DNA of 64,000 nt from a bacterium (GTDB taxonomy: Bacteria > Hinthialibacterota > Hinthialibacteria > Hinthialibacterales > Hinthialibacteraceae). Position numbers and translations under genes: made by a program. Location of the stretch: NCBI GenBank assembly GCA_963663405.2, contig CAXXSM010000153.1, forward strand, positions 1 through 64,000, read 5' to 3'. The notes under the pieces were generated by a model. That model did not search any database, was not told where the DNA came from, and saw only the letters and a program-made list of their open reading frames with translations. Shown piece by piece: positions 6,258-59,936 of this stretch (position 1 is its first letter; the number at the start of each line of letters is the position of its first letter).

Positions 6258-7736
6258 TTGATGAGAAGAAGAATGATTTTAGTATGCGCGCTGTTGCTCG
6301 TGAGCGGTCTCGCGTTCGCAGATCGCGCCACCTACGACGAAACAAAGTCTGCGGTGGCAATGCCGTTATCTGTGCCACCGGTCATCGATGGTGTAATCGA
6401 TATCAGTGGCGGTGAATCATGGCTCGACGCGGGCGGCGCAAAAGGCGACGGCTCTGGCTATTGGAAAGTCACTGTGGATTTGGATTTGGAAGATGAAGTC
6501 CGTGGCGGCTCGATATCAAGCGGGGACGTAGGCCCCATTGATGACACGGACCTAAGTTTCCATATGTACGCCGGTTATGACAGTGACTATTTATACGTCG
6601 CCGTCCGTGTATTCGATGATTTCATCGAAACGGACAGCGCGGAAGCCGGGTCAGCGAATGGAAACACATGGTACGATGACAGCGTGGAAGTGTTTGTTGA
6701 TGGCGATAACAGCAATTATCCGGATCGCGATACAACAGGTACTAATGAAGAAGTTGTTGGAACCGGCGGCCAGTTCGTCATTACAGCAAACAACGCCTAT
6801 CGGGAAGCGGAAGCGGGAAATCCTGGCTATGGTGAAGACGCGGCATGGTATGCGTTAACCGCAGTGCGGGAAGATGGAACCGGTTATGACGCTGAGTTCC
6901 GGATTTCCATGGACACGATCGGCAATCCACAACCAGGTGATATCATTGGTTTTACGATTGGCGTCAACGAGGATGATTTGAGCGGAAGCGCGCAGCGACA
7001 GCTCATTTGGTGTGGCGCCACGCATGAGGAAATCACGTACGGTAATCTATACCTCGGTCCTAGAAGCTACACCGCTCCGAAAGTATCAACCGCTCCTACA
7101 GTCGACGGCGTTATCAACGCCGATGAATATGCAGGCGCGGGAGAAATTGAAATGAGAACTTATTCTCTGGTCTACAACCTGGATTACGGCGATGATGAAT
7201 GGCCGGTTGACGATCACGGTTATTCGGCTTGGGTCGTTCATAATGATGATGCGGTTTATGTCGCCGTGGATGTCATCGATGACATTCTTAGCAATGACTC
7301 GGCGGCCGCCGGTTCGGAAGATGGAAGCACATGGAATGATGACGCTATTGAAGTCTTCTTTGACGTGGACGACAGCAATGACCGAGACGCTGGAGACCTG
7401 GAATACGAAGGTCAATACGTCTTCACAGCCAACGGCGCTTGGCGTGACAACGAAGCGCTCAATCCGATTTTCGGTGAAGAGGATGATTGGTTCGCCGCTC
7501 AGTCCACTACAGACACCGGTTATCAGGTGGAATTCAAAATCACCAAATTCGCGCTTGTTGAGGTCGCTGATGGAACCACGATGGGCTTCAACATTTGTAT
7601 TGACGACGAAGATGTCGCAGGCGAAAACGCCAAAGTGCAAGCGCACTGGAACGGCTTCGCTCACGACGAATTTTCCTATGGCAATCTCACACTGTCCTCC
7701 GGTGGAGTCGCAGTCGTGGATTGGTCACTTTTCTAA
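6258..7736 (+). CDS. Secreted acidic protein with tandem CBM9-like sugar-binding domains; C-terminus VAVVDWSLF
   Basis: Signal peptide; two repeats of PxIDGVI...LYVAVxVxDD...WxDDxVEVFxDxD...ExxYGNL; AGGAGG RBS. Confidence 0.8.
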   Translation: MMRRRMILVCALLLVSGLAFADRATYDETKSAVAMPLSVPPVIDGVIDISGGESWLDAGGAKGDGSGYWKVTVDLDLEDEVRGGSISSGDVGPIDDTDLSFHMYAGYDSDYLYVAVRVFDDFIETDSAEAGSANGNTWYDDSVEVFVDGDNSNYPDRDTTGTNEEVVGTGGQFVITANNAYREAEAGNPGYGEDAAWYALTAVREDGTGYDAEFRISMDTIGNPQPGDIIGFTIGVNEDDLSGSAQRQLIWCGATHEEITYGNLYLGPRSYTAPKVSTAPTVDGVINADEYAGAGEIEMRTYSLVYNLDYGDDEWPVDDHGYSAWVVHNDDAVYVAVDVIDDILSNDSAAAGSEDGSTWNDDAIEVFFDVDDSNDRDAGDLEYEGQYVFTANGAWRDNEALNPIFGEEDDWFAAQSTTDTGYQVEFKITKFALVEVADGTTMGFNICIDDEDVAGENAKVQAHWNGFAHDEFSYGNLTLSSGGVAVVDWSLF

Positions 7737-7758
7737 TGAATTAAGAATCATATAATCT

Positions 7759-7796
7759 AAATAGGGCGGCTTAATGTGTTTAAGCCGCCCTATTTT
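7759..7796. terminator. Intrinsic terminator, probably bidirectional
   Basis: aaatagggcggctta-loop-taagccgccctatttt between convergent genes. Confidence 0.8.
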
Positions 7797-8103
7797 CTAT
7801 TATAGTAATAAATTTATCCATTTCAACGAATCCATTCAATTCTCCACATGACAAATAACAGGAAGAACCGAACTTTATGATCCACGAAGCCATGAATGGT
7901 CCACTGTGGATCAATCAATCGAAATAAAACAAACATTACTATTTAATTATAATGGATTTATCTTTTTGAAAGTTATATTAATTGATATGTTATTTATGAA
8001 GGGAAAAAGCATCCGTGGCAGGGAGGAAAGGCTGTTGGTTTGTTTTCGTAACCCAGCCGAATCGATGTTTCGAGCCGGGAGCGATTGATTGACATTCAGC
8101 CTT

Positions 8104-8823
8104 TTACACCTCGAAATCCACGGATGATGGATTATCATTTACGTCTCCGCTCTTCAAAATCTCTGAATCGCCTGCTTGAGGAGACGCCGATGTCTCATTT
8201 TCTCCGGCTTTATCCTGAGCGGAATTTAATATTTCATCCCGGAAATTCGCGATTTCTTCCATAACAAGATTATAAGTTTTTTGGATCACTTCACCGATTT
8301 CACCAAGTTCATCATAATTCCCAAGAATCTGTTCCGCTTCTTGGAAGCCTTTTTGGATAGCCTCTTGGACTAGAGTGGAGAATTCAGTCACTTGCTGTGT
8401 GATCTCTTCCCCATCATGGTTCGCTTGATACGAACTGAAGAATCCAGTGGCGAATTGAGCGATGCGGCTTGCTGTGTTTTCAGGACTTATATAGTCCAGA
8501 AGTTCCTGAGAGGTCGCATTCTCAGGAGGAAGAAAATTATCCGGGATTGACGCGTCATCCCCTTGGAGACCGTAACGCCGCGTTAACTGGTCCTTGATTT
8601 TAGATTGAATCGTGTTGATCGATTCGGCCAGTTGCACTGGATCAGCGTCCAGGTGGAACGAGAACGAGACGACATCTTTAGCGGTTTGTGTTTTTAACTC
8701 CGCTTGGGTAACCGATTTCGGGTCTTGATCCGCTGTGCCGTTTGACATACCAGAGGCATTTTGGCCCGGCGTGCTTTGCCGGATCAGGGGGGCCGCGTTG
8801 ATCGGGTTAATCATTGTTCTCAC
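8104..8823 (-). CDS. DUF5610-like protein
   Basis: SPENTASRIAQFATGFF...IQKGFQEAEQIL...IQKTYNLV resembles DUF5610; GGAAGGAGG RBS. Confidence 0.65.
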   Translation of the reverse strand: MRTMINPINAAPLIRQSTPGQNASGMSNGTADQDPKSVTQAELKTQTAKDVVSFSFHLDADPVQLAESINTIQSKIKDQLTRRYGLQGDDASIPDNFLPPENATSQELLDYISPENTASRIAQFATGFFSSYQANHDGEEITQQVTEFSTLVQEAIQKGFQEAEQILGNYDELGEIGEVIQKTYNLVMEEIANFRDEILNSAQDKAGENETSASPQAGDSEILKSGDVNDNPSSVDFEV

Positions 8824-9391
8824 CTCCTTCCATGTTTAAGTCTAGAGTCTCATCCATTATCATTATCGGCAGGCTCATTATAAAGCTTGAGCTTTCACTC
8901 CTCTCTAAGCCATTCACTTCTTTTATCATACCGCAATTTCAATGATCGAATACAATTATTTTTCTATTTGTAAATCGATTGTATTTATGCTAACATAATC
9001 CTAACAATTAAGGGGTATGAGAATGATCAGTATTCAAAATAAGAGTCATCATCAATCCTAAGGAGGAATCTGCGCTGTGTGTAGATACGAAACCATTAGG
9101 AGGAGAAGTGATCAGCTACGGTGATTGTGACGAAATTTCAAGAATAATACAGCAATACACTGTGCGTGATTCAAGCGATTATGTTATCTGCACGTTCAGC
9201 AAATCCTAGAAAAGTATTAAATCAACTCATACTCAATTACAAACCCTTATTTTACTCCAATTGAATGTATATATTTCGATTTGTTGTCATATACTGGATA
9301 CTTTAATAAATAATCGCAAGTTACATCAACCGTAAATAATAAAGCAATATTGTTAATGAAGCATTAAAAACCAACTACGAAGGAGAGAATT

Positions 9392-11323
9392 ATGAGAAAA
9401 TGCTATCGAATTTGGATGTGTTTGGCGCCGGTTTTCGTGCTAGCCGTGGCTCTACCAGGCTGGACGGCTACGAATAATTCGGGAAATCCACCGACATTCC
9501 TGCACCTGGATATCTGCACCAACGGAATCGGAGATAGCAGCGCTTATCACATTTATCCCCGGATGGAGCCGGATGTCTTTGACATCGGCGTGGATTTAGA
9601 CGCGGACGGAACGATCGACCGATGGTTATCACAGGAAACAACGGAATATTTCGGGCGCGACAACGCCGAAACGATCGCGCCAGGTAATTGGCGGCGTTTT
9701 TATATCCGGTTGGATTCGGATGCGGGCAGACAGGCAAAAATCCGGATCGTGGATAACAGCGAAGAATATTACATGGCGGTTAACGCGATTCGTCTGAACT
9801 ACGCGGATGGAACCGTGGTTCCCAATCTCGTTCCGAATGGTTTCTTTGAAGATGATCCTCCATTGAATGGGTGGACGATTCTGAGCGGCAGCGTGACGGA
9901 TCCGGCCAGCTTGATCCTCACGGATGACGAATCGCAATATACCGTGTACAGTTCAAAATTCTTTTCCACACGGACCGATCCCAGCAGCGATGACAGTTCG
10001 GAAACGGTTGTGATTGAGTCGGATGAGTTTACGCTTGCGGCGCCGACGAGCTTTGTATATGGAATGGTTTCCGGCGGTGGATCGGAACTTTGGAACAAAC
10101 CGGAAGCGGAAGGAACCGACAACGCGTCCGGCGTGTATCTGGATATCGGCTCCGAAACGGAAGATCCGAACGGGCAGTATGATGAAGGCGCCGACGTTCC
10201 ATTGACGGGATTTTATGGTGGATCGGCGGCAAGTGTCCGTAACCAAATGCATCCCGTCATTCTCAACACATCCGGCCTGGAAGGAAAACGGTGTCAGGTT
10301 GTTGTTGTTGATAATTCAGAATGGTACCACGTGGGCGCCGATAGTTTCCGCATGAACTGGGATAACGAGTGGATTGAGAACGGTGGCTTTGATGATGGAA
10401 TCCCCACACCGGAAGAAGATCCGGGAGCGACCGATTGGTTCTCAGAAACGGTTTTAGAATGGAACGAACATCCAAGTGGAAGTATTCCCGGTTGGACAGT
10501 GAATATAACCGGCGACGCGAGTGTGTATTTTTTTGATGACGCGGTGCATGGAAATATGTTTTCCGGCCGCACTTATGTAGGAACCGCTGGATTTGGTGAC
10601 GCCGACCGGATTTTAGCCGGCGTGGAACTTCGATCTGATGTATTTGTGATTGATCCGATTCCCGATCCGGCCCAGAGCGTTTTTCTGCAGTTCGCTTCGG
10701 CCCAGGGAACCGCGCGGTTCCGTTATACCGACGATGGAACGGGCGTCGAGCGGGGGCGCATCGAATTACGAGTGGATATCAACAACAATGGCGCGTTCGA
10801 CGATGAAGAGGACTACGCCTACATCCAGGTCAATCAAGGGATGGGGCAGAACTTGAACACCAGCAATATGGACCTTGTCTCCTATCCCGAATACCGCATG
10901 TATATCAAACCGGAACACCAGGGCTTGCAGGCGCAGATTTACATCGAAGACACCCTCGGACCCACACGGGGCAGTTACGGATGGATGGTTGTAGATGATT
11001 TCTATGTTTGGAACGGTTCGGAAGCGGTATTGCCGTTCCCCAATTCAGACTTTGAAATGGGGAACCTGACCAACTGGACGGAGGAAGTCGGCATCAACGG
11101 TGGCTCCTTGCGATCTTGGTTATCGGGTTCAGCGGAAGTCTACGATCAGGGATTGGTGGATCACGTTACTATGAATGACCGTCACACGACCGTCGACGGA
11201 GATTATTCCGCGGACACCGGGGCGAATGAATACACCGGCGGCGACGCGGGCACGGGCACACTGATCTCGACCGCGTTCACACTCCCTGCGATTACAGCGG
11301 TTGCGGACTGGTCTCTGTTCTAA
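9392..11323 (+). CDS. Secreted acidic beta-rich hypothetical protein; C-terminus TAVADWSLF
   Basis: Signal peptide; repeated NGxFE/NxDFE CBM-like motifs; AAGGAG RBS. Confidence 0.8.
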   Translation: MRKCYRIWMCLAPVFVLAVALPGWTATNNSGNPPTFLHLDICTNGIGDSSAYHIYPRMEPDVFDIGVDLDADGTIDRWLSQETTEYFGRDNAETIAPGNWRRFYIRLDSDAGRQAKIRIVDNSEEYYMAVNAIRLNYADGTVVPNLVPNGFFEDDPPLNGWTILSGSVTDPASLILTDDESQYTVYSSKFFSTRTDPSSDDSSETVVIESDEFTLAAPTSFVYGMVSGGGSELWNKPEAEGTDNASGVYLDIGSETEDPNGQYDEGADVPLTGFYGGSAASVRNQMHPVILNTSGLEGKRCQVVVVDNSEWYHVGADSFRMNWDNEWIENGGFDDGIPTPEEDPGATDWFSETVLEWNEHPSGSIPGWTVNITGDASVYFFDDAVHGNMFSGRTYVGTAGFGDADRILAGVELRSDVFVIDPIPDPAQSVFLQFASAQGTARFRYTDDGTGVERGRIELRVDINNNGAFDDEEDYAYIQVNQGMGQNLNTSNMDLVSYPEYRMYIKPEHQGLQAQIYIEDTLGPTRGSYGWMVVDDFYVWNGSEAVLPFPNSDFEMGNLTNWTEEVGINGGSLRSWLSGSAEVYDQGLVDHVTMNDRHTTVDGDYSADTGANEYTGGDAGTGTLISTAFTLPAITAVADWSLF

Positions 11324-11790: not shown

Positions 11791-11801
11791 TTTTTATCCT
11801 T

Positions 11802-20162: not shown

Positions 20163-20272
20163 GGATGTTTACTGCTTAGATTTGTAGATACCATGTTGAA
20201 GGCTGGTTCCGAGTGAGAGGGAGGTATACTCTCTCTCACTCAGGAAAAAAAGAAAAAGAAAGGAACCAGCTA

Positions 20273-21343
20273 ATGAGAGTATACATCGGAATTGACGCGG
20301 GATGGGAGAGCATGCGGTACGAAGTGAGAAATGCGAAGCAAGAGAGAATCGAACGGGGCGGGATCGCGGCGACACCCGAGGCGTTGGAACACTTCTTAAA
20401 GAAGTACGAGCCAGTGAAGGAGGTCCAAGTGGCGTTCGAATCGGGGACGCAAATGTATTGGATGGATGCGGTCGTGAAGAAAATGGGAATGGACAGTTAT
20501 CCCTTTCATGCGGCGCACTTTTTCACCCTAGTGAAATCGAAGAACAAGACGGATAAAAAAGATGCGGAGCGGATCGCGGTGGAGGCGGCGAAACAGGGGC
20601 TGCCCGAACGGATCGTGATTCCAGAGGAGGATGAGAAACGATTGCGCGATCTCTTGAGCGAACGGGAGGCGTATAAGAAGACATTGACGGCGCAAGTCAA
20701 CCGCCTGCATGCGCTGACCGTCTCGGAAGGCCTGCTCATCAAGAAAGGCCGGTTGACGGTAGACGCCGCCAGTTGGGAGCGGGTGATCGGCCAACTGACG
20801 GGCGGCGCGAAAGCCGAAGCGAAACGGATGTACGCAATCGCTTTGAGCCTCATGCAGGCGCTCGAAGAACTCGAAGAGGCCATTCGTCACGAACTGGCGC
20901 AAGACGAATGGCGGCCCGCATTTGCCCGCTTAACGAGTGTGCCGGGAATCGGTTTTTGGAGCGCGGCGGTTCTTCTGGCCTGGTGTGGTCCCACGGCGGC
21001 GCGGTTTTCCTCGGGCCGGAAAGCGGCCTCTTATTTCGGTCTAGTCGGACTGACACGCCAAAGCGGGAAGCAAAACCGGTGGGGTCACATCACGAAAGCG
21101 GGTCCATCAATCCCCCGGCGGATTCTCGTCCAGGCGGCGCATGCGTTTTTACGACACCACCGGGCGAAAACGAGCCGCTGGGGCGTCTGGTACGACCAAT
21201 TGACTCAAGGCGGGAAGCGGAGGAAAAAGATCGCCATCATCGGATTGACCCGGAAACTCGTCACCGCGGCCGTCGCGTGTTTGCGGAACGAAACCCACTG
21301 GGACAGTACCCGCCTAGCCCTGGCCCCGGAGAGAACGTCGTAA
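20273..21343 (+). CDS. IS110-family DEDD/Ser recombinase (transposase)
   Basis: YIGID, AFESG and KTDKKDA (DEDD); SVPGIG, FSSGRKAASYFGL, RQSG (catalytic Ser) and GHITKAG. Confidence 0.95.
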   Translation: MRVYIGIDAGWESMRYEVRNAKQERIERGGIAATPEALEHFLKKYEPVKEVQVAFESGTQMYWMDAVVKKMGMDSYPFHAAHFFTLVKSKNKTDKKDAERIAVEAAKQGLPERIVIPEEDEKRLRDLLSEREAYKKTLTAQVNRLHALTVSEGLLIKKGRLTVDAASWERVIGQLTGGAKAEAKRMYAIALSLMQALEELEEAIRHELAQDEWRPAFARLTSVPGIGFWSAAVLLAWCGPTAARFSSGRKAASYFGLVGLTRQSGKQNRWGHITKAGPSIPRRILVQAAHAFLRHHRAKTSRWGVWYDQLTQGGKRRKKIAIIGLTRKLVTAAVACLRNETHWDSTRLALAPERTS

Positions 21344-24762: not shown

Positions 24763-25290
24763 ATGCTTTGTGACGTATGTAAAAAAAATCCTGCGAAGAT
24801 TCACGTAACTCAGGTGAAGGACAACAAGAAATATTCGATCCACATCTGCCAGGAATGCGCGCACGAAAAAGGCGTGGCGGGTCCGGCGATCAACACCTCT
24901 TTTTCAGTCGAACATCTTCTATCGGGATTGTTTCAATCGAAAGCCACTAGCGCCGGCACGCCAGTCTCACACGAGACGTGTCCATCCTGTGGACTATCGT
25001 ACAGCGCCTTTAAAGAGAGTGGGCGGCTGGGTTGTTCTCTCTGTTACGACACGTTCTCCGAACCGCTGAAACCGCTCCTGCAAAAAGTCCAGCGGGAGAT
25101 GAAACACATTGGGAAAACGCCGAACAAAGGAGACACGAAACTGACCATGCGGCGCGGGATCTCGGATCTGCGATTGCAATTGAAAGAAGCGGTGAACATC
25201 GAAAATTTTGAAGCGGCCGCCCGCCTGCGCGATCAGATTCGCACGTTGGAAAAAGAACTCGGTGAATCGGGTGAATCTCCGGCGGAATGA
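24763..25290 (+). CDS. mcsA: McsA, protein-arginine kinase activator
   Basis: Four CxxC motifs, GRLGC and a C-terminal UVR domain. Confidence 0.95.
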   Translation: MLCDVCKKNPAKIHVTQVKDNKKYSIHICQECAHEKGVAGPAINTSFSVEHLLSGLFQSKATSAGTPVSHETCPSCGLSYSAFKESGRLGCSLCYDTFSEPLKPLLQKVQREMKHIGKTPNKGDTKLTMRRGISDLRLQLKEAVNIENFEAAARLRDQIRTLEKELGESGESPAE

Positions 25291-25357
25291 CAACTGACCG
25301 CTACTCTACATACAGACAGCGTCCCGGAGAGGAAGCCGGCGCTCGTTCAAGAACGTT

Positions 25358-26419
25358 ATGAAACTACCGAAAGAATATATAACAACCTGCGGATGGCTGC
25401 AATCGGAAACTTCAGCCAATGACGTCGTGATCAGCAGCCGGATCCGTTTGGCCCGGAATATCGATGGGATTCCCTTTTCGCAATGGGCGTCATCGGGGGA
25501 TCTGAAACGTATTGCGGAACAATCCATCGAAGCGATTCAACACTCCCAGTCGTTAGGGAATTCCGACATTTTCAGTATTGAAGAATTGGATTCCATGGAC
25601 CGGCACTTTCTGGCGGAACAATATATAATAAGTCAAGAGTTGGCGAAAAGTGGAATCGAGCGGTATGTGGCGATCCGGCCGGATCAATCCGCCTCAGTGA
25701 TGATCAATGAAGAAGACCACCTCCGGATTCAAGTGTTGATCGCCGGTTCAAAACTTCAGCAGGCGTGGGAATTGATCAACGCCGCCGATGACGAGTTGGA
25801 GAATCACCTGACATTCGCTTTTTCCAACCGGCTGGGTTACTTGACCGCCTGTCCTACGAATGTTGGCACCGGAATCCGTTGTTCCGTGATGGCGCATCTT
25901 CCAGCGTTGGTCCTTTCGCGGCGGATCGAGAAAGTCTTGACCGCCGTTACGCAGATCGGTTTGACGGTGCGTGGATTTTCAGGCGAGGGAAGTGAAATCG
26001 CAGGGAATCTATTTCAGATATCGAACCAGTGGACGCTGGGGATTTCCGAAAACGAGACGATCCAGAAGATCAATAAAATATTGGACAATGTCATTGAGCA
26101 GGAGAAGAAGGCGCAGGAGCAATTGATGGAAAATAAGCGTATCTCGGTCGAGGACCGTGTCTGGCGGGCGTATTCCGCGCTGCGGTACGCCCGTGTGATG
26201 AGTTCCAATGAGGCGATCGAGTTTCTCTCCTCCATCCGGTTGGGCCGGAGTGTAGGGATCTTAGAGAAACCTTCCTTCGAAAGTTTAAATCAGATGATGA
26301 TCCAGATCCGTCCCGCACATTTGCAGAAACGCATCGGCAAATCTCTGGAACCCGTCGAGCGGGACGAGTACCGGGCGGAGCTGCTGCGGGATTGGATCGC
26401 GAACGGGAATTCTGTCTAA
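25358..26419 (+). CDS. mcsB: McsB protein arginine kinase
   Basis: SSRIRLARN, INEEDHLRIQ, GYLTACPTNVGTG and QISNQ. Confidence 0.95.
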   Translation: MKLPKEYITTCGWLQSETSANDVVISSRIRLARNIDGIPFSQWASSGDLKRIAEQSIEAIQHSQSLGNSDIFSIEELDSMDRHFLAEQYIISQELAKSGIERYVAIRPDQSASVMINEEDHLRIQVLIAGSKLQQAWELINAADDELENHLTFAFSNRLGYLTACPTNVGTGIRCSVMAHLPALVLSRRIEKVLTAVTQIGLTVRGFSGEGSEIAGNLFQISNQWTLGISENETIQKINKILDNVIEQEKKAQEQLMENKRISVEDRVWRAYSALRYARVMSSNEAIEFLSSIRLGRSVGILEKPSFESLNQMMIQIRPAHLQKRIGKSLEPVERDEYRAELLRDWIANGNSV

Positions 26420-26557
26420 CCCCCCACGCCACGTTGAGTATGGGTGAATTGAGATAAAAAAGAAAGAACATGGCGCCTAACCGGCGCCCATTTTTAACAA
26501 CACAGCCAAATACTGACATCGCGCCGCTGGTTCGGCGCGAAGAGCAGGAGCAATACA

Positions 26558-29010
<2,453 letters not shown>

Positions 29011-29014
<4 letters not shown>

Positions 29015-31422
29015 ACGTTCGATTCCTTTCATATCTAATTGGGATATTATGGATTCTCACGCAGGTTTCCACAGCGGCTCTCGCTCCGAAGATCATCAAT
29101 GAGGTGCGCGTGGATGGCTTGATCCACGTGCAGGAACAGGAGGTGTTGGAGGTTGTCGAATGTCAAATCGGGGATGATTTGACCTCACCCTCCACAATCT
29201 GGCAGATCCGTGATGACATGCGGGCGATCTGGGCGTTGGGTTATTTTAAGAACATTATTTCAAGAGATGAACGCTCCGGATCCGGTTGGGCGTTGGTTTT
29301 TGAAGTGGTTGAAAAACCGTTGGTTACCGAGCTCCGGTATGAAGGCGCTAAACGATATAAACGAAAGAAACTAAACCGGGAGATCGAATATACGGGGAGA
29401 GAGCGTCTTTTCTTCGATGAGGCGTTAGCCGACCTCTATCGGGATAAAATCCTCGGGTATTACACCAGCCAATCGTTTCCAAACACAAACATCACTTGGC
29501 GCGTCGAGGAACTCGCCGCGCCGGACACGGTGGCCATCGTGTATCAGATAGAAGAAGGAACACGGCTGCCGGTGAAGAAGATCGTGTTTGAAGGAAACAC
29601 GGCGGTCCGCGATAAAGAACTTCGAAAGAACATCGAAACCAAACAATCCTGGTGGTTTATCATCAAACGCCACTATGACGACGCTGTGGCGGAAGATGAT
29701 TTGAAAAAGATTCAATATGTATATTGGGATCATGGCTATTTAGACGCCCAAGCCTCTAAAGAAGAGGTGGAAGAATTTAAAAAAGGCTTAAAAGTCACCT
29801 TCCGGATCGAGGAAGGGGAACCATATACAATCGGAAAGATCATACTCCAGGGAAACACAGTCTTCTCGGATGAAGAACTGCTGTCTACGATTACCCAAAA
29901 ACCGGGCGATATTTTTTCGTTCCGGCAGATGACGCTTGATGAAATTGAGATGATCGACCTCTACCGGGGGCAGGGATTTTTGGACACCCGGATTCCGCCT
30001 GTTCAGGAGCAATGGGTGAAGGATGAAGTTAATCATATCGTTGATATCCATCTCCGCATTGCCGAATCACCACGAAAATATTTAGGGAAGATCTCTCTTG
30101 AGGGCGTCGTGACTCTGGATGACGGCTCCGTCATTCCAACGGAAGAAGGGGAGTTCAAGACCAAAGATTTTGTAATTCTCCGAGAGATAGAGTTGAAAGA
30201 AGGCGAGCCACTGGATTGGACGAAGGTCGTGGAGAGTGACCGGAATCTGGTGAATCTGAATTTCTTTAAAACCACGGGGATTCCGATCCCCGGGAGAACG
30301 AACTTGGTTCCTGGTTTTATCCGTCAACCTCAACAAGATCCTGGTTCCAATATTGAAAATCTACTTCTGCGTCTCGAAGAGATTCAAACCGGTATGTTTA
30401 CCTTCGGTGGCGGGATCAGCACGACCTATGGGCCTTCGGTGTTCGCCACGCTGACAGAGCGGAACATGTTCGGTTATGGTGTCCGAGGTTCCATCACGGG
30501 AGAATATGGCAGGTACCGGAACCGGGTTGCCCTCAGTTTTTTTGAGCCGCATCTCTTCAACTCCGATTACAGTTTAGATTGGGATATTTACTATATCGAT
30601 CAACAAGGATTCGGCCGGCGCCGGTTCGATGAAGAACGAATCGGAACGTCCGTCACATTCGGCAAAGAATTGAATGACGAACTAACCCTTCTTCTCGGTT
30701 TGAAAGGGGAAAATACAGACCTCAGCCCCGAGAGTGGAAGCCGGTACGACTTGGATCCAAACACCATTCCGGATGTGTTTAATCTCGGCAGCAATGTCAC
30801 GACAAGCATACTCTTCGGGGGTGTTTATGACACACGGGATTTCAAATTAAATCCCACAACAGGGATCTATAGCCGGACGACAGTGGAAGTGGCTGGTTTG
30901 ACGGATAACGAATTCGTCAAATTCCAGGCGGAAGGAAATCTGTATAAGGAAATCGTCAGAAAATTAGTGCTGGCGTTTTCAACGGAATTGGATTTGGCCG
31001 ACGCGTACGGGGATCCCGGCTACGTTCCATTGCAGGAACGGTTTTTCACGGGCGGCGCGCGGACTATACGTGGTTTCGAAGAAGGTGGTATCGGAGATCA
31101 AGCGCGTGTGTTCTATAAAGATCCCACATTAGGCGCGTTCCGAACATCACTCGGTGGGGAAGCGGCTTTTGTTGAAAATACGGAACTGCGATATTCTTTC
31201 ACAGAGATGTTCCAAGGTGTATTGTTCCTCGATATGGGCTCCAATTGGCCGGAAATCAGTGATATTGATCCATCGGAATTCCGATTCAGCACCGGCGCCG
31301 GCCTTCGTGTGCGCATCCCTGGATTAAACGCGGTCTTGAGCGTCGATTTCCCGGTTGTGCTCCGCAAAGAAAGCGGAGACGAAACGGAGTTTTTCCACTT
31401 CAGTTTCGGTCAATCCTTCTAG
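29011..31422 (+). CDS. bamA: Outer membrane protein assembly factor BamA (probable CTG start)
   Basis: POTRA domains, IRGF motif and terminal GQSF. A signal peptide is encoded in frame upstream of GTG 29104. Confidence 0.9.
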
Positions 31423-31698
31423 CGGATCGAAGCGCCTATTCCAAAGGGAGTGTTTTTTTTATAAACACGGCTAGAATAAACAGATTGTGGACACGTCATA
31501 AAAGCGTGTAAAAAAGAGAATTTCGAGGCAAAGAGGTACCATCATTAAACTTGCCCATGCCGGCGCATGATGGAGACAGGCTAGGGGGTTTGTCTTCCGG
31601 ATTTATTCCTGTATGGGCCGTAACATTCATTACAATATTATATTTCGATCAAAGCAAAAATGCTTCTATAAAGAGAGATGGATAAGGGAGGTATTTTC

Positions 31699-32226
31699 AT
31701 GCGGCCTTTTTTGAAACAGATTGCTGTAGCCGGTTTATTTCTTTTTTTGGCGGTTAGTGTTTGTTCCCCTGTGGGTTGGACACAAAGCGCGCCGATGAAA
31801 ATGGGATTTATCGACCTGGACGAAGTGTTCAGAACCTGTGAGATCTTCAAGCAGATTTTTGAAGAACTGGAACAGAGTTACCGCGCAAAAGTGAGCAAAC
31901 TTGAACAAAGAGAGAAGTCCATCCGGGAAGCAATCGAGAATTTTAACGTTCAAAAAGAGATTTTTAAACAAGACCGGATCAAGCAGCGTGAAGTGGAACT
32001 AAAAAACGAACAAGAGGAATTCCGGAAACAATTTCTCACCGAACAACAACGGTTTAGCGAGGAAAAAGACAAAAAACTTGAACCGGCTATTCAAGCGCTC
32101 CAAAAAGAAGTCGAAGCGCTGGCGAAAGCAGAAGGTTATGCGTTCATCTTCAAGCGGACACAACTCGTTTATGGGGATCCGCAGCATGATATCACCGCTA
32201 AAGTCATCGCTCGAATGAATAAATAA
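31699..32226 (+). CDS. skp: OmpH/Skp periplasmic chaperone
   Basis: Signal peptide, KMGFID, coiled coil and DITAKVI; lies between bamA and lpxD. Confidence 0.9.
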   Translation: MRPFLKQIAVAGLFLFLAVSVCSPVGWTQSAPMKMGFIDLDEVFRTCEIFKQIFEELEQSYRAKVSKLEQREKSIREAIENFNVQKEIFKQDRIKQREVELKNEQEEFRKQFLTEQQRFSEEKDKKLEPAIQALQKEVEALAKAEGYAFIFKRTQLVYGDPQHDITAKVIARMNK

Positions 32227-32256
32227 TTCCTTTTCTCCTGAAAGGTAGAGATCGCC

Positions 32257-33258
32257 GTGCCGACCTTTTCGCTGGATGAATTAAGCGCAAAATTGGGAGA
32301 AACATACGAAGGAGACGGAGCGCTTCTGCTACACGGCGTCGCGGAAATTACGACGGCGAAAGAGGGGGATCTCTCTTTTGTCGCGAATCCCAAATACATA
32401 CAGAATATCCCGGATTGCCGGGCTTCCGCATTGATCGTACATAAGGATCTAGAAACCGATTTCCGGCCCGTGATTCGTTCGATCAATCCTTATCTGACAT
32501 TCACCCGCGCCTTGACTTTATTTCATCAAGACGATCGAAAAATCGCCCGTGGCGCGCACTCCACCAGTCAAATCGCGGAGAGCGCCCAGCTAGGCGCTGA
32601 CCTGACGGTTATGGCTCATGCGATTATCGAGGAACGAGCTGTCATCGGCGACCGGGTCGTTATCTATCCCGGCGTTTATATTGGAAGCGGCGCCACGATC
32701 GGAAACGATGTGACACTCTATCCAAACGTCTCGATTTATGACGGATGTGTCATTGAAGACCGGTCTATCCTGCATGCGGGATGCCGCGTTGGCATGTCCA
32801 CAGGAGAGATCCCCTCAGAGGGACCGCCACCGGTAAAACTGGAGGCGGATGTCGAATTGGGAGCGAACGTAGTCATCGCCGGTTCACCGCAACCGCCCAC
32901 CGTGATAGGCGAGGGAACGAAGATTGACAATCTGGTCCAGGTCGGCGCGGGCGCGAAGATCGGCCCGCATTGCATCATTGTCGCGCAAGTTTCCCTTGGT
33001 GATCACGTAACGTTAGGCGAACGAGTGACCATCGCGGGGCAAGTCGTTGTGTCGCCAGGCTTAACGATCGGCGCGCAATCTCAAATCGGCGCGAAAAGTG
33101 TAGTAATTGAGGATGTCCCCGCCAATGCCGCCTATTGGGGTGTGCCCGCCCAGCCACACCGGGAGGAGAAACGGCTCAAAGCGAACTTAGCGAGAATGCC
33201 CCGGTTATTTGAAAAAATACGCTCTCTCGAAGAGCGATTATCTGGAATAGAAGAATAA
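32257..33258 (+). CDS. lpxD: LpxD-like hexapeptide-repeat protein with degenerate catalytic motifs
   Basis: LSFVANPKY N-domain, hexapeptide repeats and KIDNLVQ. Lacks DGFG, IDR and the catalytic His. Confidence 0.8.
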   Translation: MPTFSLDELSAKLGETYEGDGALLLHGVAEITTAKEGDLSFVANPKYIQNIPDCRASALIVHKDLETDFRPVIRSINPYLTFTRALTLFHQDDRKIARGAHSTSQIAESAQLGADLTVMAHAIIEERAVIGDRVVIYPGVYIGSGATIGNDVTLYPNVSIYDGCVIEDRSILHAGCRVGMSTGEIPSEGPPPVKLEADVELGANVVIAGSPQPPTVIGEGTKIDNLVQVGAGAKIGPHCIIVAQVSLGDHVTLGERVTIAGQVVVSPGLTIGAQSQIGAKSVVIEDVPANAAYWGVPAQPHREEKRLKANLARMPRLFEKIRSLEERLSGIEE

Positions 33259-34559
33259 TGGTTGAATATCAAAAATCGATCGCTGGAGAGGCCAGTGTAC
33301 GCGGTGTCGGTTTGCACACCGGACAGGAAACGACAATCACATTTAAGCCCGCCACAGCGGGATCGGGAATCCGTTTTATACGCGCCGATCTTCCGGGAAA
33401 ACCGGAGATCGAGGTAAAAGCGGAAAACGCGGTCTTGGAAGATTCGCTGTATCTCACTTCCCTGGGCGCCGAAGAGAACCAGATCTTAACAGTCGAGCAC
33501 GTGTTGGCGGCGTGTACAGGTTTAGGGATCGACAACATTGCGATCGAACTCTCTTCGAACGAACCACCGATCGGGGACGGAAGCGCGCTGCCTTTTGTGG
33601 AAGCGATACAGAAAGCAGGCATTATCAAACTGGACCAGCCCAAAGAATACATCGAGGTCCAAGAGCCGATCTGGCTGTTTGAGAATGGGCTCGAGCTGGC
33701 GATTATTCCATCCCAGCGCTTGGAAGTCACATATAAAATAGACTACGATCACCCCGCAGTCGGGATTCGTTCGGCTTCGTTTTTGGTGACGGAAGAGATC
33801 TTCGCCGAGAAGATCGCGCCCGCCCGGACATTCTGTTTTCTCAAGGATATAGACATCCTGCGAAAGCAGGGAAAAATTAAAGGTGGGAGTCTTGAAAACG
33901 CGATCGTCATTGGAGAGCAGGATTTTCTCAATGAAGAACTGCGTTTCCAAGATGAAATTGTCCGGCACAAGATCCTTGATGTGATCGGCGATTTGGCGCT
34001 CTTAGGAAAACCGCTCAAAGGTCATGTGATCGCCGTCCGGTCCGGACACGCGTTTAATATCCGATTCGTGCAAAAAGTCTTACATACTTTGAATGGAAAT
34101 GTGAAAAAAGGAATGCCAAGTCTTCCTATCTACGCACAACAAATCCGCCAGATTCTCCCTCATCGATACCCATTTCTTTTAATCGATCGCGTCATTGAAA
34201 TGGATTACAAAGAACTTCGAGTCGTTGCGATTAAGAACGTGACGAACAATGAAGAATTTTTTAGCGGCCATTTCCCAGATGAGCCAGTCATGCCGGGAGT
34301 GTTGTTGATCGAAACGATGGCGCAGGCTGGAGGAGTGCTGCTCTTAGGGATGGACGAAAACCGGGGCAAGATCGCCTATCTGGTGGGAATCGACAACGCG
34401 AAAATCCGTCAGCGCGTAGTTCCAGGGGATCAGCTTGTGATTGAGACACAGATTATGAAAATGCGCAAACGGATCGGGAAAGTAAAAAGCACGATCCGTG
34501 TGGAAGACCAAATCGTCGCGGAAGCCAATCTTCTTTTTTCAATTGGAACGGATTCGTAA
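33258..34559 (+). CDS. lpxC/fabZ: Bifunctional LpxC/FabZ
   Basis: GVGLHTG, TVEH and HKILD; HRYPFLLIDR and GHFPxxPVMPGV. Confidence 0.95.
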   Translation: MVEYQKSIAGEASVRGVGLHTGQETTITFKPATAGSGIRFIRADLPGKPEIEVKAENAVLEDSLYLTSLGAEENQILTVEHVLAACTGLGIDNIAIELSSNEPPIGDGSALPFVEAIQKAGIIKLDQPKEYIEVQEPIWLFENGLELAIIPSQRLEVTYKIDYDHPAVGIRSASFLVTEEIFAEKIAPARTFCFLKDIDILRKQGKIKGGSLENAIVIGEQDFLNEELRFQDEIVRHKILDVIGDLALLGKPLKGHVIAVRSGHAFNIRFVQKVLHTLNGNVKKGMPSLPIYAQQIRQILPHRYPFLLIDRVIEMDYKELRVVAIKNVTNNEEFFSGHFPDEPVMPGVLLIETMAQAGGVLLLGMDENRGKIAYLVGIDNAKIRQRVVPGDQLVIETQIMKMRKRIGKVKSTIRVEDQIVAEANLLFSIGTDS

Positions 34560-34566
34560 AAGACTT

Positions 34567-34797
34567 GATGATTCAAGATCACAACGCCTAAATAAAATAT
34601 GAGTCGCGGGAGTGGTAGGGTGGGTTACGCTTTATCGACCCACCGGGAATGATTCACAAAAATGGCGCCTCAAAAAGACACGACCCACCCTACAAACTCA
34701 TTTTCATATAAACCATCACGATTGAGATCACAACCACAGATGATAATGAGTTGCGGAAGAAATTGCGAATGAGTGAGCCTTAGGAACTCATTTTCAT
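34567..34797. repeat. Tandem family D hairpin repeats; the first contains an inverted REP doublet
   Basis: Motif gatcacaa...atgag...aactcattttcat at 34567-34707 and 34715-34797; REP arms at 34615-34644 and 34682-34693. Confidence 0.7.
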
Positions 34798-34956
34798 ATA
34801 AAAAAGCGTTATAATGTCAGCAAGATCGTGGTATAGTATTCGGTGAACCGGGGATTGTGCTAAAATCGACTGAATGTGAGTGGAGACTTTTGTTTTGCCG
34901 CGAGGTCAATTGAAGGGGACGCAATACCCAAACAATTGAAGAAAGAATAGAATCTA

Positions 34957-35733
34957 ATGACAATGATAGACAGTTCCGCAATCATTCATCCTCACGCTCA
35001 AGTGGGAGAGAACGTCGAGATCGGTCCCTATGCGATCGTTGGAGAAAACGTAAAAATTGGATCCGAAACAATAATCGGACCTCATGCGGTTTTGGAGGGT
35101 TGGGTGACGCTGGGGAGAAACTGCCGTATCGGCGCAGGCGCCGTAATCGGAAGCGAACCTCAGGATCTGAAATTCCGCGGGGATCCAAGTTCCGTCGTCA
35201 TCGGCGACAATACGACGATTCGGGAATACGCCACCATCAACCGCGCGACTTTCGAAGGGGAATCCACAATCGTGGGCAGCAATTGCCTGGTGATGGCCTA
35301 TTGCCACATCGCGCATAACTGTGTCTTGGAAGATCGTGTGATTATGGCGAGTTTCGCGGGTTTGGCCGGTCACATCCGGATTGAACAGAACGCGATTATC
35401 GGTGGATTAGTCGGCGTTCACCAATTCGTCCAAATCGGCCGCAGCGCGATCATTGGCGGGGGCGCCGCCGTGCGGAAAGATATTCTTCCCTATACTTCAG
35501 CCAGCGGTAATCCATGCAAATCCAAAGGGCTGAATATCGTCGGTTTGAAACGCGCCAATTATTCCCCCGAACGGATCTCGCAATTAAAGAAAGCCTACCG
35601 GATTATTTTCCGTTCAAAATTAAGTGAAGAAGAGGCGATCGAACGGCTCCAGGAAGAGATGGGCGAGGTTCCTGAAATCAAACAGATGATTGATTTTATA
35701 AGTGGCTCGAAACGAGGATTGGCGCGGATGTAA
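34957..35733 (+). CDS. lpxA: UDP-N-acetylglucosamine acyltransferase
   Basis: PQDLKF, IREYATINR, HIAHNC, HQF and GLN. Confidence 0.95.
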   Translation: MTMIDSSAIIHPHAQVGENVEIGPYAIVGENVKIGSETIIGPHAVLEGWVTLGRNCRIGAGAVIGSEPQDLKFRGDPSSVVIGDNTTIREYATINRATFEGESTIVGSNCLVMAYCHIAHNCVLEDRVIMASFAGLAGHIRIEQNAIIGGLVGVHQFVQIGRSAIIGGGAAVRKDILPYTSASGNPCKSKGLNIVGLKRANYSPERISQLKKAYRIIFRSKLSEEEAIERLQEEMGEVPEIKQMIDFISGSKRGLARM

Positions 35734-43318: not shown

Positions 43319-44383
43319 GTGAAGGACATGAAAGCAAACACGATTTGGGCAATTGCGTTTGGATTTTTATTTTGTTTCGCGCCTCTTCTGATACAGGCCG
43401 ATCCTCATGCGAGCCGTGAGTATAACGCCAACCGGGTTCCCGGCGCGGCGCCAACGATCGATGGTGAGTATACCGAAGAGGAATGGGCTGGTTCCGAATG
43501 GACGACGGGCTTTTACGGACTGAATAATCAAAGCTCCAACGGTTCCAATCAAGCCAATTTGATCGATTTGAATTATCGATGGCGGGCGCTTTGGGATGAT
43601 GATTATCTTTACATCCTCTTTGAAGCGGAAACGTTCGATTTGCCGATCAACGGTATCGTTGGAGAAGACATCGTCAATCCTATCGTCCAGGACGATGACA
43701 CATTTTCGTATGCGATTGGATTGGGGACCGATATGGAGATTTTCCTGGAACCAAATTGGCAGGAGGGAGATGGTTTTAATAGTGATCCTCCCGATTTTAC
43801 GGATCCAGGCGGAGATGTGAACGACGGCTATCATTTTGTCTGGTTCCCATTAGAGAATGATGAGGATTGGACAGAACTAAACGAAGGGATTCGTGGCGCG
43901 GATAATATTGAAGGCCCTCCCTACTTTTCATCGTCAGGCGGCTATAACAACACTTACCTCGGTGGAACGTGGGACCCGACATTTGACCCAGCCGCGGCGG
44001 AAGCGGCGGGTGCAATGCCATTTCTGGGAGCGGGATTTCTTCACCACACCGGCGCCGAACGCGGTTCCGGCGAAGTGTACGCCAATCCAGTAATGGAAGT
44101 GGGTATCGCATTCAGTCAAATGAACCCAACCTTTGGAATGGCTGAAATGGGAAACGAAGGAGAGACCCATTTGACACTCGAACCGGACGCGGATGGGAAT
44201 TATGTCCATGTAGGCGATCAATGGCTCGTTAATATGGCGGGATACACCGATCCCTATACAGCAGCGGAAGGTTTGACGCTGATTACATGGAACAATGTAA
44301 TCGGGGGACCGTTCGCTTCGTATCCGCGTGGGATTATGACATTTGTGGATGAATCGGATGTTGGAGATTGGATGATGCATTAA
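43319..44383 (+). CDS. Secreted acidic CBM9-like protein; C-terminus SDVGDWMMH
   Basis: Signal peptide, APTIDG...EEW and RALWDDDYLYI. Confidence 0.75.
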   Translation: MKDMKANTIWAIAFGFLFCFAPLLIQADPHASREYNANRVPGAAPTIDGEYTEEEWAGSEWTTGFYGLNNQSSNGSNQANLIDLNYRWRALWDDDYLYILFEAETFDLPINGIVGEDIVNPIVQDDDTFSYAIGLGTDMEIFLEPNWQEGDGFNSDPPDFTDPGGDVNDGYHFVWFPLENDEDWTELNEGIRGADNIEGPPYFSSSGGYNNTYLGGTWDPTFDPAAAEAAGAMPFLGAGFLHHTGAERGSGEVYANPVMEVGIAFSQMNPTFGMAEMGNEGETHLTLEPDADGNYVHVGDQWLVNMAGYTDPYTAAEGLTLITWNNVIGGPFASYPRGIMTFVDESDVGDWMMH

Positions 44384-55430: not shown

Positions 55431-55612
55431 GTATTCGCCTCTTTTGCGCCTGCGCCCTAATTCTTTTCTTCCATGTTCAAAGAATAAAGTAACACGCCAT
55501 TCATTATGGAGGAAGTCTATCCCTCCGATTCTTTAGCTGTCAACCCCGTGAAAGCATTCAATCCTACGGGGCGCCGTATTATTATATACTATTATGGCGC
55601 CAACCTATAAAT

Positions 55613-56197: not shown

Positions 56198-56257
56198 AGG
56201 GCGTACGAGTTTCGCTCCACCAGGCTCTCACAACCGCAGCGTCAAAGAGGGACGTCA

Positions 56258-57232: not shown

Positions 57233-57279
57233 TCCATTGGATCCATGCGGGATCCAGCGATTCATTCAGCAAACGAATT

Positions 57280-58392
57280 GTGAAACTATTTCAAAAATCC
57301 ATTCATAAAACTTCGATTCAATCGTCCGCGATCCGAAGTTTTCAATATTCCCTCGTCGCGGTGATTCTCGTTGTCGCGGGTGGAGCGGGGGGATTTTATC
57401 TAATCGAAATCTATAGCGTCCAGCACGGGTGGCTTTCGGTGGAAGACAATTTCGTTGAAAACCGTCCAATCTTGGAGGCGTTATATTGGGCTATCGAAAC
57501 GCTGACCACAACCGGTTATGGCGATATTGTTCCAAAGACATACGTAGGGAAAATCTTCGTCACTGTATTTTCCGTTTTGGGATTATTGACATTAGCATGG
57601 GCGGGAGCCAATGCGCTGGCGTTCATTGTGGAAGGACGATTGAGTGAGGCGGTGCGCGAGATGAAAATGGCAAAGGAAATCCATTCCCTAAAAGACCACT
57701 ACATTATCTGTGGATTGGGGCGTGTCGGGATGGAGGTGATCCGGCAGTTCCGGACATCACATGTAGACTATGTAGTCATCGATCAATCCAAAGAGGCGTT
57801 GGACGCGGCTCTGGAAGAGAACGAACTACGGATCGCCGGCAACACAACAAGCGATGACACTCTCCAAGCGGCGCAAATCGAAACCGCGAAAGGATTGGTG
57901 GCCTGCGTCCCCAGCGACGCGGATAATGTATTTACCATCTTGACCGCCAAAGGAATGAATCCCGACCTCTTTATCATTACCCGCGCTCAACAAGAGGCGT
58001 CACGCAATAAATTGATCCGGGCGGGAGCCGACCGGGTTGTCATGCCGGCGCTTATGGGAGGAATCCGGATGGCGAGTATGGCGCTGCGGCCGGCGATTGT
58101 CGAATTTTTGGATCATTCGTTCCAAATGTCCGGCGGCCGGGAACCCATGCTTCTGGAACAGATCCCCGTCGTGAAAGGAAGCGTCTTCGCGGGGAAGAAA
58201 TTGAGAGAAACAGATATCAAATCCAAAACCGACGTATTAATCTTGGGGATCAAGATGACAAACGGCGAAGTGCTCATCAATCCCCCATCGGACCACATCA
58301 TCCACCACGGCGATCTGCTCATCGGCATGGGCTATCATTCCCACTTCCAAGCCCTCCGCCGCCACCTCGGCATTCCGGAAGAAGAAGCGTGA
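57280..58392 (+). CDS. Potassium channel with RCK (TrkA-N/C) domains
   Basis: TLTTTGYGD selectivity filter and HYIICGLGRVG. Confidence 0.9.
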   Translation: MKLFQKSIHKTSIQSSAIRSFQYSLVAVILVVAGGAGGFYLIEIYSVQHGWLSVEDNFVENRPILEALYWAIETLTTTGYGDIVPKTYVGKIFVTVFSVLGLLTLAWAGANALAFIVEGRLSEAVREMKMAKEIHSLKDHYIICGLGRVGMEVIRQFRTSHVDYVVIDQSKEALDAALEENELRIAGNTTSDDTLQAAQIETAKGLVACVPSDADNVFTILTAKGMNPDLFIITRAQQEASRNKLIRAGADRVVMPALMGGIRMASMALRPAIVEFLDHSFQMSGGREPMLLEQIPVVKGSVFAGKKLRETDIKSKTDVLILGIKMTNGEVLINPPSDHIIHHGDLLIGMGYHSHFQALRRHLGIPEEEA

Positions 58393-58665
58393 GGGTAAGG
58401 GGATTAGGCTGAAGGTTGAAGACTGAAGGTATGCAAAGATTGGATGACAGATCACGTCTTTGAGGGATTTAATCTTATCGTGATTTAAATTGATGAGAAA
58501 AGAGATTCACTGTAATCATAAGGATTAATGAATGGTAGAACAGAATAATTACAATTCGGTATCAAACTTAGTTTTCTTGTGGATACCACACGTTCGCGTA
58601 AATCGAGTTATAAGAACAACTCAATGTCAAAAAGACTTGTTCGAGGTAATCAGTACAAGTTTATC

Positions 58666-59936
58666 TTAACGCATTAATTCCCAAACCTTAGAAAAAGATG
58701 GTATTCCTGAAAAGAGCAAGATATTATCAATTGATCTACTCCCATCACCATCTTCTGTCGCAATCCAAATACCAATCCTATCTAAACCTCTTGTAGTTCC
58801 TTGACGGAATTGGAAATCATCAGCGATTTTAACGGTTCATCCGGAAATTGGGCACATCGATTGAATTTTTAATAAAAAGTGTAATCGAAAGCCCTATGGA
58901 TCGTGACGTGTCTGTGGACAAATCTATCGATATTGCCCACAGCCACTTGGATAACGATAAAGCCGTTATCCACACGCTCCACAGTTATACGGATAATACC
59001 AATTCTATTTTTTTCTTTGTTAATAACTGATTGAATATTCTATACTTAAGAATCTTGAAAAACTTGCTAAGATTTAAAGAAATCCTTGTATTGATCATTT
59101 TAAAAAACAGATTGCAAAACACCCAATAATCAATATTCCGATAGTCTATTCAAAGATTAGATAATCATAGAATAAGATACACAAATATTTGACAGATTAC
59201 TTTTGACATTTAACAGATCACGGAGTATCGATGCTTTTTTCCTAGGAAATTTGAGGTATCACAATGATAAAACTTACAAAAAATGGTGAAATTTCCTAAG
59301 AAAAAACGCAATGCGCCCAATTTCCGGATGAGCCATTTTAACTTCAGTTTCGCCTTCTTTGGTTGCGAACAAATCATATGTATTTGCAGCGACATCTATG
59401 ATTGCGCGAATGTGTATTATTTTGCCGTCTGTATAATCGAAAGGTGTCAATGCGTCATAAGAACCTTTCCCAAACAAATTGCCATTATACGCATCAAGCA
59501 CTTCCTTCCCTTCTGACAAACGAGTTGAAACAGATAGTTCTTCCCACGTAATAGAAAGATCTCCAACAAGATCAAAATTTTCTGAATCATACACAGCGAA
59601 ACCAAAATCAACTGGACCTTCTAGAGCTTGTGTATCCCATGTAAGAGTTAGCAATCCTTCTGACTGCAAAGGAAATCCCAAAACTATAGAACCACCGCCC
59701 CAACCGCTCTGAGTCAAAACAGCAGACTCATTTTTGACGTTAAAAACACCGTCTGAATTACTCCCATCTTGCGACTCATAATAATTTAGTTCCCATCCAT
59801 TTTGTCCAATAAGTTGACCTTCACTATATCCTTGCGCCTCAGAGAAATCGATTTCTAACAAATTATCACTCATGACAGGCGAACATGTTACGTTTAAGAC
59901 AAATACCGCGAAACTCCACATCTTTAAAATTTTCAT
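58666..59936 (-). pseudogene. Secreted protein gene (253 aa when restored) split by a MITE; C-terminus SFSKVWELMR
   Basis: Removing 58834-59342 rejoins ...ATKEGETE-VKIADDFQFRQ...VWELMR in frame. Confidence 0.85.
58834..59334. mobile_element. Non-autonomous MITE, 501 bp
   Basis: 24-bp IRs gg(t/c)tcatccggaaattgggc(a/g)cat (22/24). 8-bp TSD attttaac at 58826-58833 and 59335-59342. No transposase. Confidence 0.9.

Follow-up and report, generated by a model that had tools for sequence, protein, structure and literature searches.

The stretch of DNA analysed here (the window: 64,000 nucleotides, positions 1 to 64,000 of contig CAXXSM010000153.1, assembly GCA_963663405.2, phylum Hinthialibacterota) encodes exported proteins that end in a short tryptophan-containing tail. 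This C-terminal tail is a genome-wide signal: about 190 exported proteins of the window's genome (G000; 8.44 Mb, 82% complete) share it in one of two length classes, class 1 and the longer class 2. We lean towards the view that the cargo is cut after the first tail residue and joined to the cell envelope by PorU-like sortases of the C25 peptidase family, independently of the secretion system known as type IX (T9SS), with enzyme clade A acting on class 1 and clade B on class 2. Close homologues are named Candidatus Hinthialibacter. The intact tagged proteins of the window and their tails are as follows.

6258..7736, plus strand: exported 492-residue protein with two CBM9-like domains and a class-1 tail (PF06452, E 3e-28; tail 22.5 bits)
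7707..7736, plus strand: class-1 tail VAVVDWSLF, nine codons and the stop codon
9392..11323, plus strand: exported 643-residue protein with no Pfam family and a class-1 tail (tail 23.8 bits)
11294..11323, plus strand: class-1 tail TAVADWSLF
43319..44383, plus strand: exported 354-residue protein with a weak CBM9-like match and a class-1 tail (E 7e-4, under the cut-off; tail 21.0 bits)
44354..44383, plus strand: class-1 tail SDVGDWMMH

Tail scores refer to a 10-position matrix trained on the C-termini of G000. The three proteins end in GGVAVVDWSLF, ITAVADWSLF and ESDVGDWMMH, respectively. Each has a signal-like segment at the N-terminus and no hydrophobic segment elsewhere, and all are acidic (D+E 16-20%, K+R 2.5-5%). 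Two paralogues of the 9392-11323 protein in G000 have related tails at the end, and both paralogues of the 43319-44383 protein are tagged. The initial annotation had described four secreted, acidic proteins, two of them CBM9-like, with a tryptophan-containing tail and no transmembrane (TM) helix. For the three intact proteins (21.0-23.8 bits) the tail, the lack of a TM helix and the acidic composition are borne out, whereas the fourth has only a degenerate tail of the longer class; the CBM9_1 match is strong in the first protein and weak, below the cut-off, in the third. The tail is absent from the Skp-like, BamA and 60166-62316 proteins of the window, and the first and last of these had been rightly listed as lacking it. 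The 60166-62316 product, a putative lipoprotein without the tag, combines Big_5 domains with five carboxypeptidase-regulatory-like repeats.

The signal was characterised on 6765 non-shadow open reading frames (ORFs) of G000 with at least 100 codons. Tryptophan stands at position -4 in 275 and at position -5 in 145 of them, against about 105 at other positions. The iterated matrix sets apart 149 ORFs, whether the threshold is put at 10 or at 12 bits, with 0.16 expected from internal windows, and none of 5905 shadow-frame ORFs reaches 8 bits; since the matrix was trained on the same C-termini, it is these two null sets that carry the test. The class-1 tail has nine residues, [T/V/S]-x-[V/I]-x-[D/N/E]-W-x-hydrophobic-[Y/H/F]-COOH (in per cent: T54/V29/S11, P/S/A, V79/I17, x, D33/N23/E8, W95, x, L67/V13/I13, Y55/H21/F19, end). 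The class-2 tail is longer by one residue, in most cases K, E, D, Q or R. In all, 29 such ORFs are found in G000 at 10 bits and 44 at 6 bits, and 42 were kept, 19 of them with a class-1 homologue. The motif proposed initially, x-V-x-D-W-x-L/M-F/H, is correct in its core; the actual signal is longer, begins with T, V or S, and has two length classes.

By a crude heuristic (signal peptide and no TM segment, not SignalP), 107 of the 149 tagged ORFs are predicted to be exported, compared with 1381 of the 6616 without a tag (odds ratio 9.7, p 3e-39). The tagged ORFs are acidic, with further TM segments in three and a lipobox in one. The logo of the 149 class-1 tails has no TM helix or basic cluster after the motif. 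No Pfam or NCBIfam model recognises the tail: scans of 45 tails gave nothing relevant, the only match being to DUF4585 at E 0.059, and none of the 45 matched NCBIfam at E 0.1. No description of the tail, or of its pairing with C25 peptidases, was found in the literature searched, with subscription papers and supplements outside the search; the available portions of PMC8092238 and PMC9324843 make no mention of C25, gingipains or C-termini.

The tail is a swappable module. The 149 tagged proteins, which are up to 3288 residues long, fall into 65 sequence groups, 42 of which are single proteins; the largest have 28, 15 and 12 members. The 80 residues before the tail form as many as 90 groups. Pfam matches were obtained for 17 of 40 tagged proteins scanned, and the cargo domains include CotH with lamin-tail, LamG, LRR, FG-GAP, WD40, beta-helix, GH5, subtilase, esterase, cohesin-dockerin, FGE-sulfatase, CBM9 and others. 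No outer-membrane barrel family was seen among these 40 cargoes, including the 17 with Pfam matches. The FlgD-Ig domain PF13860 was considered as a cargo signal and rejected, as it has only two matches in G000, one of them at the N-terminal end of a tagged protein.

The exchange of C-termini is seen in the 120 best homologues of the 6258-7736 protein (52-74% identity apart from the protein itself). In 53 of them the class-1 tail directly follows the domain, and in the other 67 the domain is complete without the tail. Six of these contain a repeat segment followed by a PEP-CTERM-like signal, which meets the TIGR02595 cut-off in two of three scanned. Therefore, the tail sits in the slot of a known sorting signal on the same passenger. 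The remaining 61 mostly have another C-terminal domain of roughly 60-100 residues, those with names being from Verrucomicrobia. This replacement domain (P0182, P0202, P0126 and many others) ends approximately in F-[YF]-R-[VA]-x, and six scanned copies had no relevant NCBIfam match; it may be another undescribed sorting domain. Overall, the suggestion of a lineage-specific sorting tag is supported: the tail is enriched among proteins with signal peptides, it does not form the final strand of a domain common to its carriers, given the 65 groups, the diverse upstream regions and the module swap, and no existing sorting-signal model in Pfam or NCBIfam matches it.

The first six positions of the tail appear to follow the cleavage sites of PorU. 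In 17 PorU sites counted by hand from Table 2 of PMC4560394, in the part of that paper available, P1 is T in 9, P1' is G/S/A in 16, P2' is V/L/I in 14, P4' is D/E/N in 10 and P5' is V/I in 15; experimentally mapped PorU sites are also covered in the accessible part of PMC11969387. At the same positions, the 149 class-1 tails have T/S in 98, G/S/A in 75, V/L/I in 144 and D/E/N in 96, followed by W in 95%. The site pattern X/(G,S,A)-(V,L,I) is thus closely followed at its last position and in only half of the tails at the preceding one, and the cut site in the tail is a predicted one.

The initial annotation had envisaged a processing enzyme, and the best candidates for this role are PorU-like C25 peptidases, which combine the fold, the catalytic dyad and co-occurrence with the tails. 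All 35 genomes of the window's phylum and 73 of 75 Sumerlaeota have the C25 family (PF01364), whereas none of 14 control genomes does. Clades A and B of the PorU-like proteins occur in both phyla. G000 encodes two PorU-like C25 proteins, at C89 (clade A) and C61 (clade B), neither of them tagged. Clade A proteins have about 1800 residues and clade B proteins 1250-1700. In a quick tree of 52 catalytic domains, the clade B group (support 92) is apart from clade A; clade A proteins form separate groups by phylum and have a C-terminal domain in common.

The enzymes have the C25 domain, the His-Cys dyad, and the N-terminal region and fold of the PorU type. An intact clade A protein matches positions 5-743 of the PorU model NF033707, past the peptidase domain, at E 1e-68, and five intact proteins score 160-232 bits, with 222 and 186 for the two proteins of G000. 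PorU (6za2) is the sole sequence match of the clade A protein in PDB and the best fold match of its structure model (pLDDT 82; 1045 columns), ahead of RgpB and Kgp. All 18 clade A rows have the catalytic His and Cys. The C-terminal end specific to clade A consists of a CARDB domain and a CBM35/CBM6-like fold (Z 10-11). In at least 12 clade B proteins of Sumerlaeota a lipobox-like Cys is seen by eye. A complex prediction for clade A residues 215-1096 with a 32-residue tail scored 0.01 and counts neither way.

Several further features of the C25 loci were observed. In both phyla, many loci have a TPR-protein gene directly downstream of clade A (L009:8763-10178, L139:11406-12458 and equivalents), and its product is a possible partner. 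O-antigen-ligase-like genes are near 6 of 54 loci examined. Other long proteins at C25 matches carry tail-like ends (L154:8072-13444, L161:7625-12808), just as gingipains belong to the cargo of T9SS. The clade A-negative lineage of G048, G050, G052-G056 and G058 has a duplicated clade B, with adjacent copies in G053, G055 and G056.

The phylogenetic range of the tail was estimated with a DNA pattern for class 1, which catches part of the tails (69 in G000) and admits some false ends. It gives 11-86 matches in each of 26 genomes of the window's order, with 0-3 in the reverse control. There are 3-22 matches in family f6, five in f5 and one false match in f4. A GTDB-wide scan gave at least 109 loci (80 with titles), and matches in open frames are mostly from Sumerlaeota, OLB16-type and unnamed records. 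Among the matches listed, the tail is present in Hinthialibacterota and Sumerlaeota, the lineages that the initial annotation had named; a third phylum is conceivable. Single matches in Ruminococcaceae and Gemmatimonadaceae were rejected as background (one match and one control match). One match in an open frame was observed in Neisseria (L080). The distribution of class 1 among the 75 Sumerlaeota is patchy, and two blocks of genomes, G041-G058 and G106-G112, are poor in tails. The class-2 pattern, to which the same limits apply, is matched at least once in 69 of the 75 Sumerlaeota and, within the window's phylum, in 33 of 35 genomes.

The tails were profiled against the C25 clades and the secretins. 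In Sumerlaeota the short tail tracks clade A, and the long tail persists with clade B. The clade A-specific HMM matches 47 of the 75 genomes. With at least three class-1 pattern matches taken as presence of the tail, 37 genomes have both tail and clade A, 3 the tail only, 10 the enzyme only and 25 neither (Fisher p 7e-9, which overstates the association, since clade A loss could be one event). One genome scored as clade A-negative, G088 (two class-1 matches), holds clade A at a contig end. In the window's order, clade A is full length in 24 of 26 genomes and represented by its N-terminal part in the other two.

Clade A is missing from 24 of the 25 genomes in the tail-poor blocks. By the top locus per genome, clade B is best in 19 of these 24, four have no PorU-like match and one has a weak match. 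All 19 clade B-best genomes have at least one class-2 match. In G043, G107 and G108 there is no PorU-like match and no true class-2 match, as the pattern matches end in TGG or hold an in-frame stop; G110 and G111 (11 and 20 class-2 matches, respectively) hold clade B. In the rpoB trees, which cover 28 of the 75 Sumerlaeota and G000, G107 and G108 are nested with G110, and G043 with G044-G046, in starred clades. Within the window's phylum, both tail classes are absent from G001, which lacks a full clade A gene and has a clade B-like gene that is split. Secretin matches are found in all 75 Sumerlaeota, including 8-12 in each of G043, G107 and G108; since they are kept in genomes without tails, secretins taken together show no profile and were rejected as the tail reader.

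We propose the following mechanism, which is modelled on PorU. The cargo would cross the inner membrane by Sec, as the signal-like N-termini suggest, and the unfolded tail on a short linker would bind the enzyme with T, S or V at P1. The small-[V/I]-x-[D/N/E] segment would fill the prime side as in PorU substrates, and W-x-hydrophobic-aromatic-COOH would serve as the address in place of a folded C-terminal domain (CTD). The His-Cys dyad would cut after P1 and join the cargo to an amine group on a glycan or lipid of the envelope, freeing a peptide of eight or nine residues. From the co-occurrence, clade A (C89 in G000) probably serves the flush class-1 tail and clade B (C61) the longer class-2 tail. 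For outer-membrane crossing, a secretin-based route would be the likeliest of those available. The broadest form of this proposal, a stand-alone Gram-negative sortase system with two gingipain-family transpeptidases, two orthogonal tags of nine and ten residues that lack both membrane anchor and folded domain, up to about 190 proteins attached to the envelope per cell and no type IX translocon, in Hinthialibacterota and Sumerlaeota, is more tentative, and we put its chances slightly below even.

A number of observations weigh against anchoring by these enzymes. Proline follows the proposed P1 in 35 of the 149 tails and valine occupies P1 in 43, and both are absent at these positions from the 17 PorU sites. 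Clades A and B score far below the equivalog cut-off of 420 for NF033707, and C25 peptidases are common in many lineages. The loss of clade A may be a single event: monophyly of the clade A-negative genomes is not rejected (AU p 0.15), and only two independent pairs are on starred branches. G047 has a clear clade A gene and no class-1 match. Conversely, tails occur in G040 and G113, where clade A is represented only by ambiguous fragments, in G097, where no PorU-like protein is clear, and in G057, which has one true class-2 tail and no C25 match; these four mismatches are likely due to assembly gaps. Indeed, absences are soft, because most of the exception genomes are fragmented. G041 and G042 score as clade B with a clade A-like active-site motif. 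Finally, the clade A gene of G000 itself (C89:70234-75689, equivalent to L009:10235-15690) is split at a run of 11 G. In a low-depth contig from another sample this run is two bases shorter and the gene would be in frame, as judged by tblastn frames; thus an assembly slip or a slippage (phase) variant is likely.

The tail might instead be an uncleaved docking peptide, with the tryptophan and the terminal aromatic residue binding a scaffold, S-layer or receptor, and with the C25 co-occurrence reflecting shared ancestry. That V/I, W and the last two residues are the most conserved, that the proposed cut site tolerates Pro and Val and that clade A could have been lost once all agree with this. 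We nevertheless consider it unlikely, as it leaves unexplained both the PorU-like first six positions and the joint absence of tails and enzymes in G043, G107 and G108; moreover, no scaffold candidate was found.

It is also improbable, in our opinion, that the same enzymes act as a signal peptidase and the cargo is freed, unanchored, to the medium or periplasm. The enzymes and the profile also fit this reading, some T9SS cargo cut by PorU is unanchored (according to the available part of PMC11285876), and no acceptor pathway was identified. On the other hand, the enzymes retain the large N-terminal region of PorU, and the CBM35/CBM6-like fold of clade A could bind a glycan acceptor; the O-antigen-ligase-like genes near a few of the loci are a weak indication in the same direction.

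It is similarly unlikely that the tail serves as a signal for outer-membrane export, recognised by a secretin system or by a chaperone of the periplasm, and that processing is secondary or absent. G000 has nine secretin matches, and 102 of its ORFs have a prepilin-type N-terminus; the secretins are universal in Sumerlaeota, the cargo domains are typical of extracellular proteins, and some tagged proteins are very large. However, secretins persist in the tail-free genomes. It is very improbable that the tail is a structural final strand or an inherited relic and plays no part in sorting, a reading already largely refuted by the cargo grouping and the module swap: although some cargo families are expanded, most groups are single proteins, over half of the 6258-7736 homologues have a complete domain without the tail, and the tail stands strictly at the C-terminus and is conserved in two phyla.

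Components of T9SS were sought in G000 and a few other genomes. SprA (TIGR04189) had no match in G000 (82% complete, as noted above), G012 and G105, with 474 bits in the positive control G038; in G003 there are two sub-threshold pieces of 40 residues. PF14349 and PF18962 had no match in G000, and TIGR04183 none above the cut-off in five genomes, in each case without a positive control. For PorV, PF19572 had no match in G000, and NF033709 matched G000 and G012 partially, at 23-42 bits (cut-off 90), and had no match in G003 and G105; the control G038 did match. Two beta-barrel-like proteins of G000 with such partial, sub-threshold PorV-family matches are encoded at C125:21540-22661 and C35:15992-16918. 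Only 8-9 residues follow the proposed cut site, compared with a folded C-terminal domain of at least 40 residues in T9SS cargo.

The fourth protein of the window is encoded by a gene interrupted by an insertion element.

59335..59936, minus strand: 5' portion (about 200 codons) of the fourth gene, which the element interrupts
58834..59334, no strand assigned: non-autonomous insertion element of 501 bp with inverted repeats at its ends and a target duplication of 8 bp (nine full copies in G000)
58666..58833, minus strand: 3' part of the fourth gene, with a degenerate class-2 tail at its end

After removal of the element the gene encodes 253 residues, ending in IPSFSKVWELMR. The insertion element, on whose removal the initial claim of a fourth tail depended, is real, whereas the tail is degenerate and no match by itself, scoring -30 in register and -9.8 when shifted by one. 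The protein is 38% identical over 254 residues to its paralogue C122:29710-30477, and it is counted as a degenerate class-2 member because the tail of this paralogue is canonical. The ends of the element are also present at a few other loci of G000. Elsewhere in the window, IS1-family and IS110-family transposase genes were observed at 4187-5841 and 20213-21343, respectively. The region 24763-35733 encodes, on one strand, McsA/McsB-like, ClpC-like, BamA, Skp, LpxD, LpxC-FabZ fusion and LpxA proteins (from Pfam matches; the gene names are our reading). An Rfam search of the window gave no match.

If the C25 enzymes form such a stand-alone sortase system, the attachment module of T9SS would be separable, and the T9SS signal would be a cleavage site with an added translocon-binding domain. 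The tail would then be a short bacterial C-terminal sorting signal without a TM helix, paired with a C25 enzyme, and would make the surface proteome predictable for two uncultured polymer-degrading phyla (close to 3% of the ORFs in G000). It would also offer a simpler system for the choice of sites by PorU-type enzymes, and protein ligation would be a candidate use of a sortase pair able to distinguish tags that differ in a single terminal residue. PorU-like C25 peptidases, labelled only as cysteine peptidases in databases, obtain a testable role in bacteria without T9SS.

Among known signals, the beta-signal of outer-membrane barrels recognised by BAM has a terminal aromatic residue, as the tail does. 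However, the cargoes here consist of soluble domains (beta-sandwiches, propellers, repeats and enzymes), a linker precedes the tail, and BamA of the window scores as untagged; the earlier exclusion of a beta-signal agrees with the absence of barrel families among the cargoes scanned and with the swappable tail. Closer analogues are the tripartite signals LPXTG/sortase A, PEP-CTERM/exosortase, GlyGly-CTERM/rhombosortase and MYXO-CTERM/myxosortase. As outlined in the available part of bioRxiv 10.1101/2023.06.07.544157, such signals are terminal and multi-copy, have passengers with signal peptides and are paired many-to-one with an enzyme. The tail likewise is terminal, occurs in many copies on unrelated passengers with signal peptides, and shows a many-to-one pairing with its candidate enzymes; PEP-CTERM occupies the same slot on the 6258-7736 homologues. 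In contrast to these signals, it has neither a TM helix nor a basic cluster, in line with the exclusion of PEP-CTERM and LPXTG made at the outset, and in place of an intramembrane protease or sortase A, a peptidase of the gingipain family, soluble or lipid-anchored, is proposed.

The closest parallel is T9SS with its sortase PorU, known from Bacteroidota (TIGR04183/PF18962, NF033707, PDB 6za2). Both systems have a Sec signal and a C-terminal signal on many unrelated cargoes, with apparently near-identical residue patterns around the known cut site, and the enzymes share the C25 His-Cys centre, the PorU N-terminal region and fold, and a C-terminus without the cargo tail. T9SS had initially been set aside on length; the length difference stands, and the tail nonetheless resembles a PorU cleavage site. 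The tail has 9-10 residues, whereas the folded CTDs of T9SS have 40-82 (from the accessible part of PMC11969387), and it ends in W-x-hydrophobic-aromatic. In the genomes searched here there is no SprA and no PorV at the cut-off, and there are two enzyme paralogues and two tail classes. The enzymes differ from PorU in their CARDB and CBM-like C-terminal domains and in their sub-cut-off scores. By this analogy the system probably resembles the attachment step of PorU and yet is not T9SS, as the tests for a folded CTD and for SprA fail; what is new is the link to C25 enzymes and the two-class profile.

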